Positions 28,419 through 37,719 are shown, counted from the first letter of the stretch. The stretch is DNA of 62,457 bases from Patescibacteria group bacterium (GCA_041651015.1 JBAZKA010000006.1:1-62457); one strand, 5' to 3'. Numbers and translations: made by a program. The notes: generated by a model from the letters alone, not told the origin.

Positions 28419-28447
28419 TTGACAAAATTTCGTTTTTCTTATATAAT
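28419..28447 (+). promoter_or_regulatory. sigma-70-type promoter (TTGACA-17-TATAAT) for the tRNA-Gly/tRNA-fMet operon
   Basis: TTGACAAAATTTCGTTTTTCTTATATAAT. Confidence 0.6.
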
Positions 28448-28453
28448 CTAACC

Positions 28454-28544
28454 CAGAGTAAATAGATTTCGCGGGTATACTAAGGTATACCCGCTCATTC
28501 GCGGAAAATGTCAAAATAAATTTTGCCATTTTGCCGCTCATTTC
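28454..28544 (+). promoter_or_regulatory. structured 5' leader of tRNA-Gly(GCC), including an acceptor-stem-like minihelix
   Basis: GCGGGTATAC-TAAG-GTATACCCGCTCA (tRNA 5' and 3' acceptor strands joined). Also AAAATGTCAAAA-TAAA-TTTTGCCATTTT. CCGCTCATTTC lies directly before the tRNA. Confidence 0.4.
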
Positions 28545-28616
28545 GCGGGTATAGTACAACGGTTAGTATACGTCCTTGCCAAGGATGAGATGGCGGTTCG
28601 ATTCCGCTTACCCGCT
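28545..28616 (+). tRNA. tRNA-Gly(GCC), no encoded CCA
   Basis: Manual cloverleaf: acceptor GCGGGUA/UACCCGC, anticodon arm CGUCC-UUGCCAA-GGAUG, T arm GGCGG-UUCGAUU-CCGCU. Confidence 0.85.
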
Positions 28617-28660
28617 CAAGACGACCCATAATTAAGATATGGGTCGCGCTATACATATAT

Positions 28661-28733
28661 AGCGGGGTAGAGCAATTGGCAGCTCGTCGGGCCCATAACC
28701 CGAAGGTTCCCGGTTCAAGTCCGGGCCCCGCAA
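28661..28733 (+). tRNA. initiator tRNA-fMet(CAU), no encoded CCA
   Basis: Nearly identical to the E. coli tRNA-fMet core (GCUCGUCGGGC-C-CAUAACCCGAAGG). Has the three G-C pairs in the anticodon stem and an unpaired 1:72 (A:A). Confidence 0.8.
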
Positions 28734-28734
28734 C

Positions 28735-28770
28735 AAAAGAGTTCAATTATAATAATTGAACTTTTGTTTT
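28735..28770 (+). terminator. rho-independent terminator
   Basis: AAAAGAGTTCAATT-loop-AATTGAACTTTT followed by a T-run. Confidence 0.65.
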
Positions 28771-28818
28771 ATTGGGGATATACTAAGTGGATATAATAAT
28801 TTTTTAAAGTAATGTAGT

Positions 28819-29946
28819 ATGTCAACTAAAGAATTCTTTAATGATCAAAGTGACGGCACTGCCGTAAAGATAAACTTTTATGAAGATTACATAGAGAGTT
28901 ATCTATTCAAGATATTATTATCTTTTGGTAGTTGTATGATCGCAGACTTATTCTGTGGACCGGGCAAAAATGGCGATAAAGATGGAAGCCCGTTAATTTT
29001 GCTTAAAAAAGCAACGGAAGTTTTAAAAGACGAGAAATTTAGTAACAGTGTAAAATCATCCTCGGAAATTATCGTTATTTTTAATGACATTAATAAAGAA
29101 AATATTAATAAGTTAAAAAGTGAGTTATCAGCCATAAGTCTTCCGGGAAATATAAAAATAATTGAACCGCAGAATAATAAATTTAGTGATATCGCCGCAG
29201 AAATTGTTAAGCTTAATATTTCAATGCCCAAATTTTTTTTCTTAGACCCGTTTACATATGGCGACATTCAGCTGTCTGAGATCAAGCAATTAATGGATAT
29301 AAATTGTTCCGAAGTGATGTTATTTATGCCTACATTCTTGGCTTATCGTTTTGCGACGTCAATTAAGAACCCGCAAAAATTGATAAGTTTTTTAAATAAT
29401 TTTACCGACAAAGGAGTTTATGATTATGAAGATATATATGATTTTGTTAATTCAATTAAACGAAAAATTAAGATGGAGCTTGGTTTAAAATTTGTGCAGG
29501 ATGCTCTAATTGATGTCGGCAAAAATAAAAATTCACTTTTTTTATTAACAAAAAACACGAAAGGCGCCATGCTTTTTAATAATCTTTTTTGGAAGGAGTC
29601 TTATGACGGTAAATCATTAAATGTTTCTGAAATTAAACACAATGAAAAAGAACCGAGATTATTTTCTAAAGATGTTCTGCCAACGGCCGAACTTGAAGAA
29701 CGCGTTCTTAACTTTCAGACAAAGGTCATTGATGAATTAAAGAAGAAGCGCAAGATGTGTAATACGGAAGTAATAGAATTTACAGTCGTCGAGGGTTTTA
29801 AGCCGAAACACGCGAACGACGTTCTTATAAAATTAAAAAAAGAAAATAAAATTAGAGTAAATTATTTTAGTGCCTTAAAAGTTAAGGGTTTTTATGTATC
29901 TGAAAAGATGTTCGATCAGAAATTGTGTGAAATAGTATTTTTATAG
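28819..29946 (+). CDS. TcmP-like (three-Cys-motif partner) protein
   Basis: N-terminus ...KINFYEDYIESYLFKIL...IADLFCGPGKNGDKDGSPLILL resembles the TcmP family as I recall it. Paired with the atypical radical-SAM-like gene. Visibly AT-rich. Confidence 0.5.
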   Translation: MSTKEFFNDQSDGTAVKINFYEDYIESYLFKILLSFGSCMIADLFCGPGKNGDKDGSPLILLKKATEVLKDEKFSNSVKSSSEIIVIFNDINKENINKLKSELSAISLPGNIKIIEPQNNKFSDIAAEIVKLNISMPKFFFLDPFTYGDIQLSEIKQLMDINCSEVMLFMPTFLAYRFATSIKNPQKLISFLNNFTDKGVYDYEDIYDFVNSIKRKIKMELGLKFVQDALIDVGKNKNSLFLLTKNTKGAMLFNNLFWKESYDGKSLNVSEIKHNEKEPRLFSKDVLPTAELEERVLNFQTKVIDELKKKRKMCNTEVIEFTVVEGFKPKHANDVLIKLKKENKIRVNYFSALKVKGFYVSEKMFDQKLCEIVFL

Positions 29947-29962
29947 TATAATTACTATATAG

Positions 29963-30814
29963 ATGTTTATGCTTACCATAAAGCGGAAATCCCTACTTTA
30001 TAAAAGCGGTGTTGAATACGCTGATTTTTGCGTTAATCATGTTGAGGGGTGTGCCCACGGTTGCCGGTTTCCTTGCTACGCCATGATGATGAAAAAACGC
30101 TGCGGCATTATCAAAGATTATAAAGATTGGATAAAACCAAAATTAGTGAGTAACGCGTTGGAATTACTGGATAAAGAAATACCCAAATACAAGGATAAAA
30201 TTAAATTTGTCCATCTTTGTTTTACCACTGATCCTTTTATGTATGAGTATCCGGAAGTCAGCGATTTAAGTTTAAAAATCATTGAACGATTTAATAAGGA
30301 TAACATACGCCTAACCGTGTTGACGAAAGGGGTTTATCCGAAAGATTTAGCCGACGGCGAAAAGTATGGAAAAAGGAACGAATATGGTATTACTTTGGTT
30401 TCGTTGAGCGACAAATTTAAAAGAGACTTCGAACCGTTTACTGCATCGTACAGAGAACGAATAAAATCATTAAAATATTTGCATGATAAGGGTTTAAAAA
30501 CATGGATTAGTATGGAGCCGTATCCGACGCCGAATATAGTTTGGCAGGATCTAAATAAAATATTAAAAGAGGTTAGTTTTGTTGATAAAATTATTTTTGG
30601 TAAGTTAAATTACAACGTTGACGCGTCACAGTCCGTTTTTAGGGCCAGTAAAGAATTTTATGATGAGCAGGCGAACATTGTCATAGATTTTTGCAAGGAA
30701 CGAGGTATAGAATATCATATTAAATTTGGCACGCAAAAAAAAGATAGTAAAAAAACCGACAAGATATTTGTTCGTGACGCTACGTCCGTTAGAAGAATTG
30801 CTTACGCAATTTAG
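29963..30814 (+). CDS. radical-SAM-like protein (SplB/DNA-photolyase-like fold) with a CxxxCxxxC motif
   Basis: VEGCAHGCRFPCYAM in place of the canonical CxxxCxxC. Confidence 0.6.
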   Translation: MFMLTIKRKSLLYKSGVEYADFCVNHVEGCAHGCRFPCYAMMMKKRCGIIKDYKDWIKPKLVSNALELLDKEIPKYKDKIKFVHLCFTTDPFMYEYPEVSDLSLKIIERFNKDNIRLTVLTKGVYPKDLADGEKYGKRNEYGITLVSLSDKFKRDFEPFTASYRERIKSLKYLHDKGLKTWISMEPYPTPNIVWQDLNKILKEVSFVDKIIFGKLNYNVDASQSVFRASKEFYDEQANIVIDFCKERGIEYHIKFGTQKKDSKKTDKIFVRDATSVRRIAYAI

Positions 30815-30830
30815 AATAAACTTCCTAACA

Positions 30831-30864
30831 AAAAAACACCCCGCTTTTCGCGGGGTATTTTGTT
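30831..30864. terminator. bidirectional terminator
   Basis: A-run, ACCCCGC-TTTTC-GCGGGGT, T-run, between convergent genes. Confidence 0.7.
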
Positions 30865-30869
30865 TAATA

Positions 30870-31922
30870 CTAATTTTCCTCCAACTCTTTCCTATAATGC
30901 GCTTCGTACATTTCCCAGAACGCCAGCATGAGCGAAGCAATAATCGGCCCGATGATAAATCCGGAAATGCCGAATACGGCAATACCGCCCAGAGTGGAAA
31001 GCAAAACCAAAAGAGGATGCATTTGCGAATCTTTGCCCACCAGCATGGGGCGCAAAATGTTGTCAATTGTGCCGATAACCAGCGCGCCGAATAAAATCAT
31101 GCCGATACCAATCCAAGTGTGTCCGATAATGATCATAATAATCGCGGCTGGCAACCAAACAAAGTAAGGCCCGATACCCGGCACTGAGGAGAGGAGCACC
31201 ATGAGGAGTCCCCAGATGACCGCGCCGTTAATACCGGAGACCCAAAACATTAGTCCGCCGAGCGTGCCCTGAATCAAGCCAATAATCAAAGAACCCTTTA
31301 TAGTGGCGCGCGTCGTGGAAGTAAATTTGTTGTAAAGCATTTTTTCCTGTTCATCTCCCAACGGGCAGAGATACATTATTTTTTTCAATAATTTTTCGCC
31401 ATCGCGGATAAAGAAAAACAAGGAATAAAATGTGATAAAGAACATAATAAGAAATACGACCGAATTTTGTGTGAAACTTTTCGCGCTGTTTAACAAGAAC
31501 GAAGTGAGGGATTGAGCCAATTCGGTAAATTTTTGGGTGATCGCCGATTGATCAATGTTTAATTGCGCGGTCAGCGGATTGTCGCGTATCCATTCAACGG
31601 CCGCGTTAATGCTAGTCTTAAGAGTACCGGAATTTTGCGACAGGGAATTATACATGTCAATTGATTGACTGACTACCAACGTGCCGATGAGGACAATTGG
31701 CACCACGATTATCGCCAGGACAATCATCATGGTGATGGCCGTACTCAGATTTGGGACTTTTAATTTGCGATTCAGAAATGAGTATAACGGATAAAAAATG
31801 CCGGCAATAATTGCCGCCCAAAAAATCGGATAAGCAAAGGTTTTGATTATCCAAAGAAAAGCCACGGTGACGACAGCGAGCAGGGCAACGAATAAAAAGT
31901 TGCGCATTTTGGAAAAGTCCAT
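30870..31922 (-). CDS. AI-2E family transporter (PerM/UPF0118)
   Basis: About 8 TM helices. IGLIQGTLGGLMFWVSGINGAVIWGLLMVLLSSVPGIGPYFVWLPAAI. Confidence 0.85.
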   Translation of the reverse strand: MDFSKMRNFLFVALLAVVTVAFLWIIKTFAYPIFWAAIIAGIFYPLYSFLNRKLKVPNLSTAITMMIVLAIIVVPIVLIGTLVVSQSIDMYNSLSQNSGTLKTSINAAVEWIRDNPLTAQLNIDQSAITQKFTELAQSLTSFLLNSAKSFTQNSVVFLIMFFITFYSLFFFIRDGEKLLKKIMYLCPLGDEQEKMLYNKFTSTTRATIKGSLIIGLIQGTLGGLMFWVSGINGAVIWGLLMVLLSSVPGIGPYFVWLPAAIIMIIIGHTWIGIGMILFGALVIGTIDNILRPMLVGKDSQMHPLLVLLSTLGGIAVFGISGFIIGPIIASLMLAFWEMYEAHYRKELEEN

Positions 31923-33655: not shown

Positions 33656-34558
33656 ATGGGTAAGTCGAACGAAGACAAACTGGGAATAAACACGTTGACG
33701 TTCCAAGAGATTAAGTTTCTCGCAAGTATGTTGGGCGGTGCCAGCAGAATACGCGAGATGATCCCGAGTTTTCACATCAACGGCGGTTGGGATGCGAAAC
33801 ACCCCGACATTACATATGGGCAGGTGGAAGCGCTCATCAACATGCTTGGCGGTGAGGAAAACGTTTTTGCTGTTTTGAACGGCCGTAAGATTGTGCAGAT
33901 CAAGGACACACCGAGCGGAAAAGTGGAACAAAAAATGAAGGGGGACTACTTTGCGTCCGTCGCTACGGACGAGAAAACTGTTACTCGTTTGGTGTCGAGT
34001 TGCGAGTACAATGTAAACGCGGCATCATACACTGTCGCAATGGGGCGCGCGTTGGCGGACGATCTCGACTACACCGGCCCGGTGTTCTGGCGGGTCAAGG
34101 TAGGCTTCACCTTGAAGTCGCACACCCCGCTCGCCGGTCCCTGCTACGAGAAGTTCGCATATCTGCAAGATTGGAATTTGCAGAACGACGAGTCCACGGC
34201 CGACTGCATGGTGTTCTTTATCCCGCGCATCATTGCGACGGGTAAGAATGCCGGGGAGCAGAAGCAGGCTCTCGTCGAGCTTCGCGCGAAGTACGGTCTG
34301 CCCACGAAATACTTGTCCTCGTTCGGCTCGGCGGCTCTCGTGTCCGGCCTCATCCTGGCGCACTTCAAGCGCACGGGCGAGCGCGCCCCGCTCAACACCA
34401 AGTGGGTGCGGACGGATACCCTCAGCTCGGACGGCGGCCGGCTCAACCTCGGCGGCTTTGACGGGATCGGGCTCCGCTGCTGCAGCGGCCACTGGGATGA
34501 CAACCGCGGCGGCAGCCTGGGCGTCTTCCCGCTGGGGGTGGTGAAAATCGCCGCCTGA
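33656..34558 (+). CDS. hypothetical protein, strongly GC-richer than its flanks
   Basis: GGGAGAACGAAG-ATG. Two MLGG-containing repeats near the N-terminus. Many shadow ORFs in other frames, typical of a high-GC insert. Confidence 0.6.
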   Translation: MGKSNEDKLGINTLTFQEIKFLASMLGGASRIREMIPSFHINGGWDAKHPDITYGQVEALINMLGGEENVFAVLNGRKIVQIKDTPSGKVEQKMKGDYFASVATDEKTVTRLVSSCEYNVNAASYTVAMGRALADDLDYTGPVFWRVKVGFTLKSHTPLAGPCYEKFAYLQDWNLQNDESTADCMVFFIPRIIATGKNAGEQKQALVELRAKYGLPTKYLSSFGSAALVSGLILAHFKRTGERAPLNTKWVRTDTLSSDGGRLNLGGFDGIGLRCCSGHWDDNRGGSLGVFPLGVVKIAA

Positions 34559-34733
34559 TTCTCAATTCGGTTTTCCATTGGCCTTGGCGCATCCGCGTCA
34601 TGGCCTTTTTTATTTTTTGTCACAAATACATTCGCTAAATCGTAATAAATACAGGACTTCACCAAGAGGGTTTTTTCTGATATACTTTGTGTACGATACA
34701 ACATTCTGTATTCTACATCCAAAATACAAAAAC

Positions 34734-36715: not shown

Positions 36716-36982
36716 TTATAATTTCTCCAGCATTTCCAATGTGGCTTTTACCGAAGAATTTTGACTGGGCAAAAGAAATAAATTATTTCCAAATTCATTT
36801 TTTATCGGTGTAATAAATTCGTCGGCCCAAGCAGGTGATAGTACATCAACACCCGCGAAATCTATCTTGATGATTTCGTTTGGCGTTTTCGGTAGGTGGT
36901 AAGCTCGGAAAACCAAATACGCTTCTCTGCCGGCAGGTCGAGAAGTCAAAATATTGCCAAACTTTTTTAGTTCAATTTTCAT
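36716..36982 (-). CDS. STAS-like domain protein (DUF4325-like)
   Basis: ILTSRPAGREAY...IKIDFAGVDVLSPAWADEFI. Confidence 0.6.
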   Translation of the reverse strand: MKIELKKFGNILTSRPAGREAYLVFRAYHLPKTPNEIIKIDFAGVDVLSPAWADEFITPIKNEFGNNLFLLPSQNSSVKATLEMLEKL

Positions 36983-37115
36983 AATGATGTTATTAATATT
37001 GAATTATACCAAAATAGTAGTGAAATAGTAAAATATGCTAATTTAACTTTAAAAATGTAATTATTTCATGAATTATTGGTTTATAGGATTGGCTTATTTT
37101 AGCCCAATTTTACTC

Positions 37116-37169
37116 TTGACAAAACCCTCATTTTGTGCTATTGACAAAGTGTCAATACTTTGTTATGAT
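37116..37169 (+). promoter_or_regulatory. two overlapping sigma-70-type promoters facing the 3' end of the NYN gene
   Basis: TTGACAAAACCCTCATTTTGTGCTATTGA and TTGACAAAGTGTCAATACTTTGTTATGAT. Confidence 0.4.
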
Positions 37170-37175
37170 ATAAAT

Positions 37176-37228
37176 ATCACTACGAAAAGAACCCCTACAA
37201 GGTATCGTCCTTGTCGGGGGTTTTTTCT
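37176..37228 (+). ncRNA. candidate short antisense or terminated RNA
   Basis: The promoters are followed within about 20 nt by CCCCTACAAGG-TATCGT-CCTTGTCGGGG plus T7. The hairpin overlaps the stop codon of the minus-strand NYN gene. Confidence 0.3.
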
Positions 37229-37719
37229 TTTAATTGCAAAATTGATTTTTGGTCATGGATGTAAGAAATCGGCGCGTTAGTTCGTTTGAGCAGGATAGAA
37301 CATTTTTTTACTTGTGCCGGAGATAATATTATTTTAAGTTTACTTTTTCCGAGCAAAAATTTAATCATGCCGGCATAATCGCCGTCACTGGATACAATGA
37401 TTGCTTGATCAAAAATATTTTCGTAAGCGTCTTGTGTCACTTTCAAGACCAAATCGGCATCGCAGTTCCCTTTGGCTTTACCGTCGCTGTCGTAAACGAC
37501 TTCTTTAAAAATTAATGTAAACCCGGCCTCTTGCAGGTTGGTATAAATATCTTTATGTTTTGGAATTAATCCGATAAATATGTAAGCGGTAGTGACGGAA
37601 TATTTTTCCCGCAACCAAACTCTGAATCTTTTATAATTCATTTTCCAGCCCAACCCTGTTATGCCTTTATGCAAATTCGCTCCGTCAATGTATGCGTGGT
37701 TGTTAAATTTATTTATCAT
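37195..37719 (-). CDS. NYN/LabA-like (PIN-related) ribonuclease-domain protein
   Basis: AYIDGANLHKG...CDADLVLKV...AIIVSSDGDYAGMIKFL. Confidence 0.8.
   Translation of the reverse strand: MINKFNNHAYIDGANLHKGITGLGWKMNYKRFRVWLREKYSVTTAYIFIGLIPKHKDIYTNLQEAGFTLIFKEVVYDSDGKAKGNCDADLVLKVTQDAYENIFDQAIIVSSDGDYAGMIKFLLGKSKLKIILSPAQVKKCSILLKRTNAPISYIHDQKSILQLKEKTPDKDDTL

Follow-up and report, generated by a model that had tools for sequence, protein, structure and literature searches.

A horizontally acquired TcmP/radical-SAM gene pair at the initiator tRNA of a Patescibacteria genome and its possible role in DNA modification

Directly after the tRNA-Gly/tRNA-fMet operon in a 62,457-nt stretch of DNA from a Patescibacteria group bacterium (GCA_041651015.1, JBAZKA010000006.1:1-62457; the whole stretch is called the window here), a block of AT-rich sequence holds two genes. 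What do these genes encode, how did they come to lie at a tRNA locus, and on what might their products act? [quoted passage not shown] Our open reading frame (ORF) check places two intact, co-oriented ORFs where they had been described, 16 nt apart on the plus strand, in the interval between tRNA-fMet and an AI-2E family transporter gene. ORF1 (28819-29946, 375 aa) is assigned to TcmP by TIGR04474, PADLOC, its AlphaFold 2 (AF2) model and Foldseek, and ORF2 (29963-30814, 283 aa), in the same operon, is a radical-SAM protein that resembles spore photoproduct lyase (SPL). The block from ~28736 to 30830, at the 3' end of the initiator tRNA gene, is a self-contained cassette of two genes that came in by horizontal transfer, and it is very probable that the acquired TcmP and radical-SAM genes act as one unit.

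ORF1, which contains the stretch ...ADLFCGPGKNGDKDGSPLILL..., had been described as TcmP-like, and profile searches bear this out. It scores 99.9 bits against the TIGR04474 hidden Markov model (HMM), above the curated cutoff of 53, with residues 14-260 covering positions 3-262 of the 263 in the profile, and 100.7 bits in a genome-wide search. The PADLOC candidate PDC-M30A is matched with 175 bits. By these sequence matches ORF1 is a true TcmP. Its AF2 model (pLDDT 91.8) consists of a Rossmann alpha/beta domain followed by a winged helix at about residues 290-349; the corresponding match to the Pfam winged helix-turn-helix (wHTH) model PF22560 GMT-wHTH is weak (22.6 bits against 27), and many homologues pass that model. 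Foldseek retrieves only class I SAM-methyltransferases, with TM-scores of at most 0.5 (HNMT, KsgA, COMT-type, TrmR and MnmM), and a profile search of PDB sequences finds no relative at the sequence level. The label "RlmJ-like" is not used for TcmP here, since RlmJ lies outside the top 50 fold matches and there is no PDB sequence match. Motif I of ORF1 reads D43-L-F-C-G-P-G49, the acidic end of beta2 is D90 and motif IV is D143-P144-F. Across 36 TcmPs sharing ~20% identity, the residues K17, Y24, D43-x-F45-x-G47-x-G49, G56-S57, an acidic residue at 90, D143-P144, E165 and R177 are kept. As judged from this alignment, TcmP carries a complete SAM-binding signature together with a "DP" motif IV.

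The placement of the second protein in the SplB/DNA-photolyase-like branch is upheld both by Pfam and by fold. ORF2 matches PF04055 Radical_SAM over residues 24-202 with 48.7 bits (gathering score 29.5), and Foldseek recovers the partial TIM-barrel fold from its AF2 model (pLDDT 82.7). The best fold match in the PDB is spore photoproduct lyase (E = 1.6e-7, TMq 0.61-0.64), followed more weakly by pyruvate formate-lyase (PFL)-activating enzyme, NifB, viperin (TMq ~0.5), TYW1 and others, and the family profile finds no sequence-level match to any PDB chain. The best NCBIfam models all score far below their cutoffs (TIGR04470, 43.4 of 410 bits; NF033668, 41.0 of 360; NF038135, 40.3 of 430), no PADLOC model matches at E <= 0.01, and phrog_13321 is matched with 82 bits. 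DUF5131 (PF07505), the name-giving partner of TcmP, is not reached: ORF2 scores 18.7 bits, below the required 28.9 (E = 1.3e-3), over its N-terminal 84 residues only (15-98). The description of TcmP as the neighbour of atypical radical-SAM proteins is thus borne out as far as the pairing goes, which is conserved elsewhere, and not as regards the name-giving partner. Gene callers and homologues put the start of ORF2 two codons later, at 29969 (MLTIKRK..., P0001, 281 aa), and this is probably its true start.

The three cysteines spaced 3 and 3 in ORF2, also pointed out earlier, are no chance feature. The sequence VEGCAHGCRFPCYA comprises residues 27-40 (V27-A40, codons 30041-30082, plus strand) and holds C30-x3-C34-x3-C38, in which Pro37 is inserted relative to the canonical CxxxCxxC. 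Of 120 close homologues, 119 keep the Cx3Cx3C spacing. Among the 150 best representatives at 50% identity, 99 are N-terminally complete and the remainder are fragments; GC[AS]HGCx[YF]PCYA is found in 82 of the 99, the canonical GCxHxCxYCYA in 16 more distant ones and Cx4Cx3C in one. When both motif classes are aligned, the three motif cysteines alone are the invariant cysteines, most other conserved residues are common to both classes and Pro37 is specific to one. A fourth-cysteine site, Cx6Cx3Cx3C, formed with the upstream C23 of the 283-aa ORF, was considered and rejected, as most relatives have Ala or Thr at that position. Because the three motif cysteines are invariant and the upstream cysteine is not conserved, a site-differentiated cluster fits the data. 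In terms of the alignment, the motif equals the canonical radical-SAM one plus a fixed proline before the third cysteine, still provides a three-cysteine site and may support SAM cleavage via a [4Fe-4S] cluster. The searchable literature contains no description of a Cx3Cx3C radical-SAM motif, the matches being a passing mention of NifB and cysteines of peptide substrates. All family-invariant residues are present in both ORF1 and ORF2. One radical-SAM homologue (L054:6115-6846) begins with MMMKKRC and has neither the Cys motif nor a TcmP upstream; probably it is a pseudogene that has lost its N-terminus, or its start was miscalled.

Is the pairing a property of the family or of this locus? Linkage was assessed at 51 genomic loci encoding ORF2 relatives, with TcmP found by iterated HMM; the denominator is 48, because at three loci the sequence upstream is too short for a call. 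In 40 of the 48, the gene directly upstream of the radical-SAM gene is TcmP, on the same strand in 39 of these and divergent in one. The loci are mostly from Patescibacteria, with others from Actinomycetota, Planctomycetota, Clostridiales, Brocadiales and further groups, and most of the 51 show the same solo two-gene arrangement. Two proteins, P0244 (634 aa) and P0246 (592 aa), are fusions of an N-terminal TcmP and a C-terminal radical-SAM part, and the pair is also found on an unverified faecal contig labelled "Bacteriophage sp.". At two Planctomycetota/Brocadiaceae loci (L045:3515-5254 and L057:3628-5336), a Cx3Cx3C radical-SAM gene without TcmP stands near genes for a flavodoxin-like flavin mononucleotide (FMN) reductase and an NAD-dependent epimerase; the FMN reductase could be the electron donor for the radical-SAM cluster there.

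The two subunits differ greatly in conservation. Over 34 loci, the radical-SAM proteins share a mean identity of 64.7% (minimum 51%) versus 26.1% (minimum 13%) for the adjacent TcmPs, and the two sets of identities are barely correlated (Spearman 0.16). The nearest radical-SAM relative of ORF2, with 87% identity, comes from a Ca. Magasanikiibacteriota metagenome-assembled genome (MAG; G023), where it is paired with a TcmP of 281 aa that has a Cys-rich insertion, matches TIGR04474 with 153 bits and is 22% identical to ORF1 (E = 0.02). The TcmP nearest to ORF1 (65%) is in turn paired with a radical-SAM protein only 71% identical to ORF2. By these comparisons the radical-SAM subunit is conserved, and its TcmP counterpart is either exchanged or diverges very rapidly.

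Composition and distribution both mark the pair as foreign, in agreement with the proposed horizontal acquisition. The GC content is 0.30-0.34 in the islet and 0.42-0.50 in its flanks; at 32.7% the islet departs from the mean of 44.5% for the 1.03-Mb genome (2-kb windows, standard deviation 4.2%) with z = -2.8, which confirms the visibly AT-richer block, and only 0.35% of the 2-kb genome windows are as low. At third codon positions the GC content (GC3) is 0.31 and 0.37 for the two genes, compared to a mean of 0.48. Neither gene was found in any of the five other genomes of the same genus, and TIGR04474 matches occur in 2 of 201 genomes of the order, namely the source genome and G023. The source genome has a single TcmP, and an HMM search finds no DUF5131 anywhere in it. 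In the region of its pair G023 has ~33% GC; this likeness to the islet is compatible with a low-GC Patescibacteria donor. A phage origin was rejected, since TcmP has no tblastn match in 50,697 phage records and a viral fold search gave only generic radical-SAM matches; close matches to the radical-SAM protein in phage records are limited to two unverified metagenomic contigs.

The insertion at a tRNA locus is explained by what the same site holds in related genomes. The tRNA-Gly, tRNA-fMet and AI-2E transporter genes stay neighbours in all five congeners, with variable content between the last two. In G003 and G002 the site is empty, with a terminator and the transporter stop codon within 66-77 bp of the tRNA. 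In G001 (G001:C11, L069:1720-8977), where the contig ends at the tRNA, a ~7-kb island lies between tRNA-fMet and the transporter. It encodes a large serine recombinase (Resolvase, Recombinase and Zn ribbon), an XRE-type HTH protein, two DNA methyltransferases (an N4/N6 methylase and a Dam-like methylase), an IceA/NlaIII-type endonuclease and unknown ORFs, and a 25-nt copy of the tRNA 3' end adjoins the transporter gene. In G004 (G004:C4, L071:640-1215) the distance from tRNA to transporter gene is 645 bp, and two partial copies of the tRNA-fMet 3' end flank a GIY-YIG ORF of 85 aa. In G005 (G005:C1, L070:1127-1395) three perfect tandem 120-bp units directly follow tRNA-fMet, and every unit closes with the final ~25 nt of the initiator tRNA (CGGTTCAAGTCCGGGCCCCGCAACA); the units could be scars of serial integration and excision, or a small repeat element that copies the attachment (att) sequence. 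Since occupancy varies among the congeners, the initiator-tRNA 3' end, located at ~28711-28735 in the window and repeated in G001, G004 and G005, is an attachment hotspot in the genus, a demonstrated integration site used by other islands. The islet sits exactly at this hotspot, extending from the tRNA end to a terminator equivalent to that of the empty sites.

In other genomes the pair has varied surroundings. A restriction-modification (RM)-type gene lies within +-6 kb in at least 15 of the 51 loci: Type IIG Eco57I/MmeI-like in four loci, Type I HsdR in two, Type ISP in one, a ResIII helicase in one and N6/N4 methylases in seven. NACHT, PIN, SocA and DUF3800 genes are also near the pair in some loci. 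A bulk Pfam and PADLOC scan of the 142 nearest neighbours finds no family in more than four of them, housekeeping neighbours (MreB, aminoacyl-tRNA synthetases, GNATs) are as frequent as RM genes, and the large ORFs upstream do not form one family but are a mixture of Type I, IIG and ISP enzymes. The absence of a recurring neighbour family implies that the pair is an autonomous cassette that is sometimes found inside defence islands; in the source genome the islet is a solo copy without a restriction partner. A survey for phage or defence context, as had been suggested, thus meets RM neighbours in a minority of loci, and the immediate neighbours are mostly non-defence genes. The "modification or defence" role that the sequence-only reading gave to the pair is a putative one.

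What might the pair act on? The SPL fold of ORF2, the wHTH of TcmP and the RM neighbours make DNA the likeliest substrate. We infer that TcmP and the radical-SAM protein would assemble into a complex on a nucleic acid duplex, DNA being the most likely. The wHTH-bearing TcmP would be the variable subunit, which recognises the target, presents a base and may also methylate, and the radical-SAM subunit would cleave SAM with its [4Fe-4S] cluster and then perform 5'-deoxyadenosyl-radical chemistry on the presented base. The outcome would be a DNA modification, or the conversion of an existing mark, relevant to conflict with phages, restriction systems or other mobile DNA. That the pair is a DNA-modifying two-subunit enzyme is a proposal to which we give an even chance. 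A bolder form, in which a near-invariant SPL-like engine is steered by interchangeable, fast-evolving TcmPs towards differing DNA sequences and writes or converts an undescribed base modification, so that the enzyme is in effect programmable, is tentative and in our view rather unlikely. If true, the pair would be an epigenetic or immunity module of a new kind, compact enough for solo persistence in 1-Mb symbiont genomes, and the radical-SAM cluster site would have a new functional variant in the proline-inserted motif.

Several observations weigh against this interpretation. Eight of the informative loci have the radical-SAM gene without TcmP. Motif IV of TcmP is D-P-F/Y/A/E and not the canonical (D/N/S)PP(Y/F/W) of amino-methyltransferases, and for this reason TcmP may bind SAM without methylating; the 3 + 3 cysteine spacing may not support SAM cleavage. 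Immediate neighbours are mostly non-defence genes, and a third conserved component was sought and rejected, as neither ORF clustering within +-6 kb of the 51 loci nor the scans of 142 neighbours found one. The link to defence is therefore statistical at best. The substrate may be DNA, RNA or a small molecule, and our searches of the open literature found no biochemical or genetic test of any family member, in keeping with the earlier remark that no function has been demonstrated for TcmP. As for the acquisition, the att-like repeat of the tRNA-fMet 3' end that had been anticipated downstream was not found: the window contains no second copy of the 24-nt tRNA end with up to three mismatches and no such direct repeat, and the islet has no integrase or recombinase ORF. 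Of the features that characterise a tRNA-integrated island, variable occupancy among relatives is present, and the integrase and direct repeat are absent. The classical "integrase plus att" model was rejected for this copy for want of a tRNA-fMet 3'-end copy downstream of the islet.

The alternative with the best prospects, which we still consider unlikely, is a DNA-repair module, in which the SPL-like enzyme would reverse or process a lesion such as a crosslinked or alkylated base, and an inert methyltransferase-derived TcmP would recognise the lesion and flip the base. The top structural match of ORF2 is indeed a repair enzyme, spore photoproduct lyase, homologues are annotated as "DNA repair photolyase" in their sources, and many loci lie among housekeeping genes. 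In Mycobacterium tuberculosis, Rv2734, Rv2735c, recX and recA form a mitomycin-C-induced cluster (PMC5057432); Rv2734 and Rv2735c may be a TcmP/DUF5131 pair. A repair function is, however, difficult to reconcile with the extremely patchy distribution of the pair (2/201 genomes of the order), its foreign composition and its position as a cassette at an integration hotspot, beside sites used by RM islands. Wholesale exchange of TcmP is also typical of conflict or specificity subunits, not of repair factors.

Less probable again is a pair that modifies tRNA or rRNA, with an RNA-methyltransferase-like TcmP and a radical-SAM enzyme that alters an RNA base in the manner of RlmN/Cfr, MiaB or TYW1. 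KsgA, TrmR, MnmM and putative rRNA methylases are among the fold matches of TcmP, RNA is a substrate of many radical-SAM enzymes, ORF2 has TYW1 as one of its weaker fold matches, and TIGR04474 has a sub-threshold match in E. coli, which is without the pair. Set against this are the top fold match of the radical-SAM protein, a DNA enzyme, the C-terminal winged helix of TcmP and the recurrence of RM genes as neighbours. For an RNA-modification gene, more vertical inheritance would be expected, and site-specific integration accounts for the tRNA adjacency seen here.

An anti-phage effector that makes a small molecule, for example a modified nucleotide in the way of viperin, and does not modify polymeric DNA, appears quite improbable. 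Viperins do appear among the fold matches of ORF2 (TMq ~0.5), TcmP is a PADLOC defence candidate and defence genes lie near the pair in some loci, but the viperin matches are much weaker than that to SPL, a hypervariable partner with a wHTH suggests that a macromolecule is recognised, and neighbour scans reveal no linked nucleotide kinase or similar gene. Finally, the idea of a functionless passenger, the decaying remnant of a larger island, is highly improbable, for while the integrase, att repeat and restriction partner are all missing at the islet and the one promoter candidate it has is weak, neither ORF is shortened, no family-invariant residue has been lost and the same solo arrangement recurs at most loci. 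Modification of DNA by a two-subunit enzyme remains the interpretation that we prefer for the pair.

The islet has clear borders at both ends. Upstream, a consensus sigma-70-type promoter (TTGACA-17-TATAAT, 12/12 match; 28419-28447, plus strand) drives the operon of tRNA-Gly(GCC) (28545-28617, plus strand) and the initiator tRNA-Met(CAT) (28661-28734, plus strand). The earlier label tRNA-fMet holds for the latter because the initiator hallmarks are in its sequence, namely the A1xA72 mismatch, A11:U24 and three G-C pairs, G29-31:C39-41. An AT-rich hairpin with 19-nt arms (28732-28770, plus strand) terminates the tRNA operon and bounds the foreign block on the left; read-through from the tRNA promoter into the islet could occur. 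A weak promoter-like candidate, TTGAAC-17-TATACT (9/12; 28756-28784, plus strand), lies upstream of ORF1, and weak promoter-like matches around ORF1 are no more frequent than in shuffled sequence. On the right, a bidirectional intrinsic terminator (30833-30861) is common to ORF2 and the convergent AI-2E family transporter gene (30870-31922, minus strand) and forms the islet border. In position this terminator corresponds to the one directly after the tRNA in the empty-site genomes G003 and G002. The transporter gene is the conserved right flank and adjoins the tRNA in all five congeners. Pfam identifies the flanking genes as encoding a P-type ATPase, the AI-2E family transporter and a polysaccharide-synthesis/flippase protein.

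Some further features of the window were recorded. Position 33 of tRNA-fMet (window position 28693) is C33 (anticodon loop CCCAUAA) versus the near-universal U33; C33 is also found in the initiator tRNA of G002, G003 and G004, and G005 has U33 (CUCAUAA). Upstream, a 17-nt repeat with 94% identity links 28466-28482 to 28540-28556; the latter copy spans the 5' end of tRNA-Gly and the former, 74 nt upstream, is inside a hairpin. G004 and G005 have several tandem matches to the region upstream of tRNA-Gly. Farther along the window, a sharp GC-rich spike (0.61-0.65) at 34000-34600 falls in the C-terminal half of a 300-aa ORF (33656-34558); this ORF has no Pfam match and the spike region no Rfam match. 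A second low-GC stretch (0.32-0.38) at 36800-37719 holds an NYN-domain ORF (37195-37719, minus strand). In G023, the ORF directly 3' of the TcmP/radical-SAM pair (L005:4456-5472) looks NYN/LabA-like by eye and has no NCBIfam match.

The cassette is a member of a widespread, uncharacterised family, with more than 7,000 database proteins in 2,111 clusters at 50% identity. Its members come from many bacterial phyla; one locus is in a MAG labelled archaeal, and another is on a phage contig that is unverified. The link between a radical-SAM enzyme and a methyltransferase-shaped partner with a wHTH suggests uncatalogued nucleic-acid chemistry, and a conserved one-residue change in the hallmark cluster motif poses a question for radical-SAM enzymology. 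The copy described here is minimal and self-contained, with clean borders and both genes intact in 2.1 kb, and G023 provides a natural "partner-swap" relative (radical-SAM protein 87% identical, TcmP unrelated in sequence) that permits work on swapped specificity. The 3' end of the initiator tRNA also emerges as a hotspot where Magasanikbacteria-type genomes of the candidate phyla radiation (CPR) exchange RM and related cargo.

Among known systems, the closest are the TcmP and DUF5131 (PF07505, formerly "phage Gp37/Gp68") pairs that are the basis of TIGR04474. The islet resembles them in its bona fide TcmP, which matches PDC-M30A, in the adjacency of TcmP to a three-cysteine iron-sulfur-type protein (ORF2, 16 nt downstream with three invariant cysteines), in mobility and in having no demonstrated function. 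It differs in that ORF2 is a PF04055/SPL-like protein with Cx3Cx3C and not a DUF5131 protein, whose motif we take to have a longer first spacer. RadicalSAM.org places DUF5131 (Megacluster-5-2) next to SPL (5-3) (PMC9477430), which fits the position of ORF2 between the two. The PADLOC PDC-M30 system is incomplete at the islet, where ORF1 matches PDC-M30A and ORF2 matches no model; the PDC candidates, most of them unvalidated, are the product of a guilt-by-embedding screen (PMC12988326). Family catalogues know TcmP solely as a neighbour of three-Cys proteins. In the papers found to mention it, TcmP appears only within gene lists, for example SMa2243 beside the Hna helicase gene in S. meliloti (PMC12445080).

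SplB (PDB 4fhc, 4fhf), whose substrate is DNA, shares with ORF2 the radical-SAM partial TIM barrel and a cluster motif near the N-terminus. At 13-15% identity the likeness is at the level of fold only, ORF2 is ~60 residues shorter and has Cx3Cx3C in place of CxxxCxxC, and, unlike SplB, it has an obligate methyltransferase-like partner and a mobile, patchy distribution. The COG1533-type families (PA0069, NF033668; Rv2578c, NF038135; and TIGR04470) have an SPL-like architecture and give the best, albeit weak, NCBIfam matches (40-43 bits). TIGR04470, "radical SAM mobile pair protein B", is likewise one half of a mobile gene pair. The scores of ORF2 are nevertheless an order of magnitude under the cutoffs of these families (360-430 bits), and the partner and the cysteine spacing are different. 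A further comparison is offered by a sister clade with the canonical motif (the G036 homologue, P0255 and P0265), at 33-51% identity (29% for the G036 copy). The only member viewed in its genomic context, the G036 copy (L006:5714-9889, G036:C11), has no TcmP and adjoins a GIY-YIG/T5orf172-like protein and a 905-aa Type III Res-like protein. The sister clade shares N23, G27, H30, Y34, Y37-A38, D88-P89, T119-K120, E155-P156, R164 and E183-P184 with the cassette family and differs from it in keeping CxxxCxxC, without the proline.

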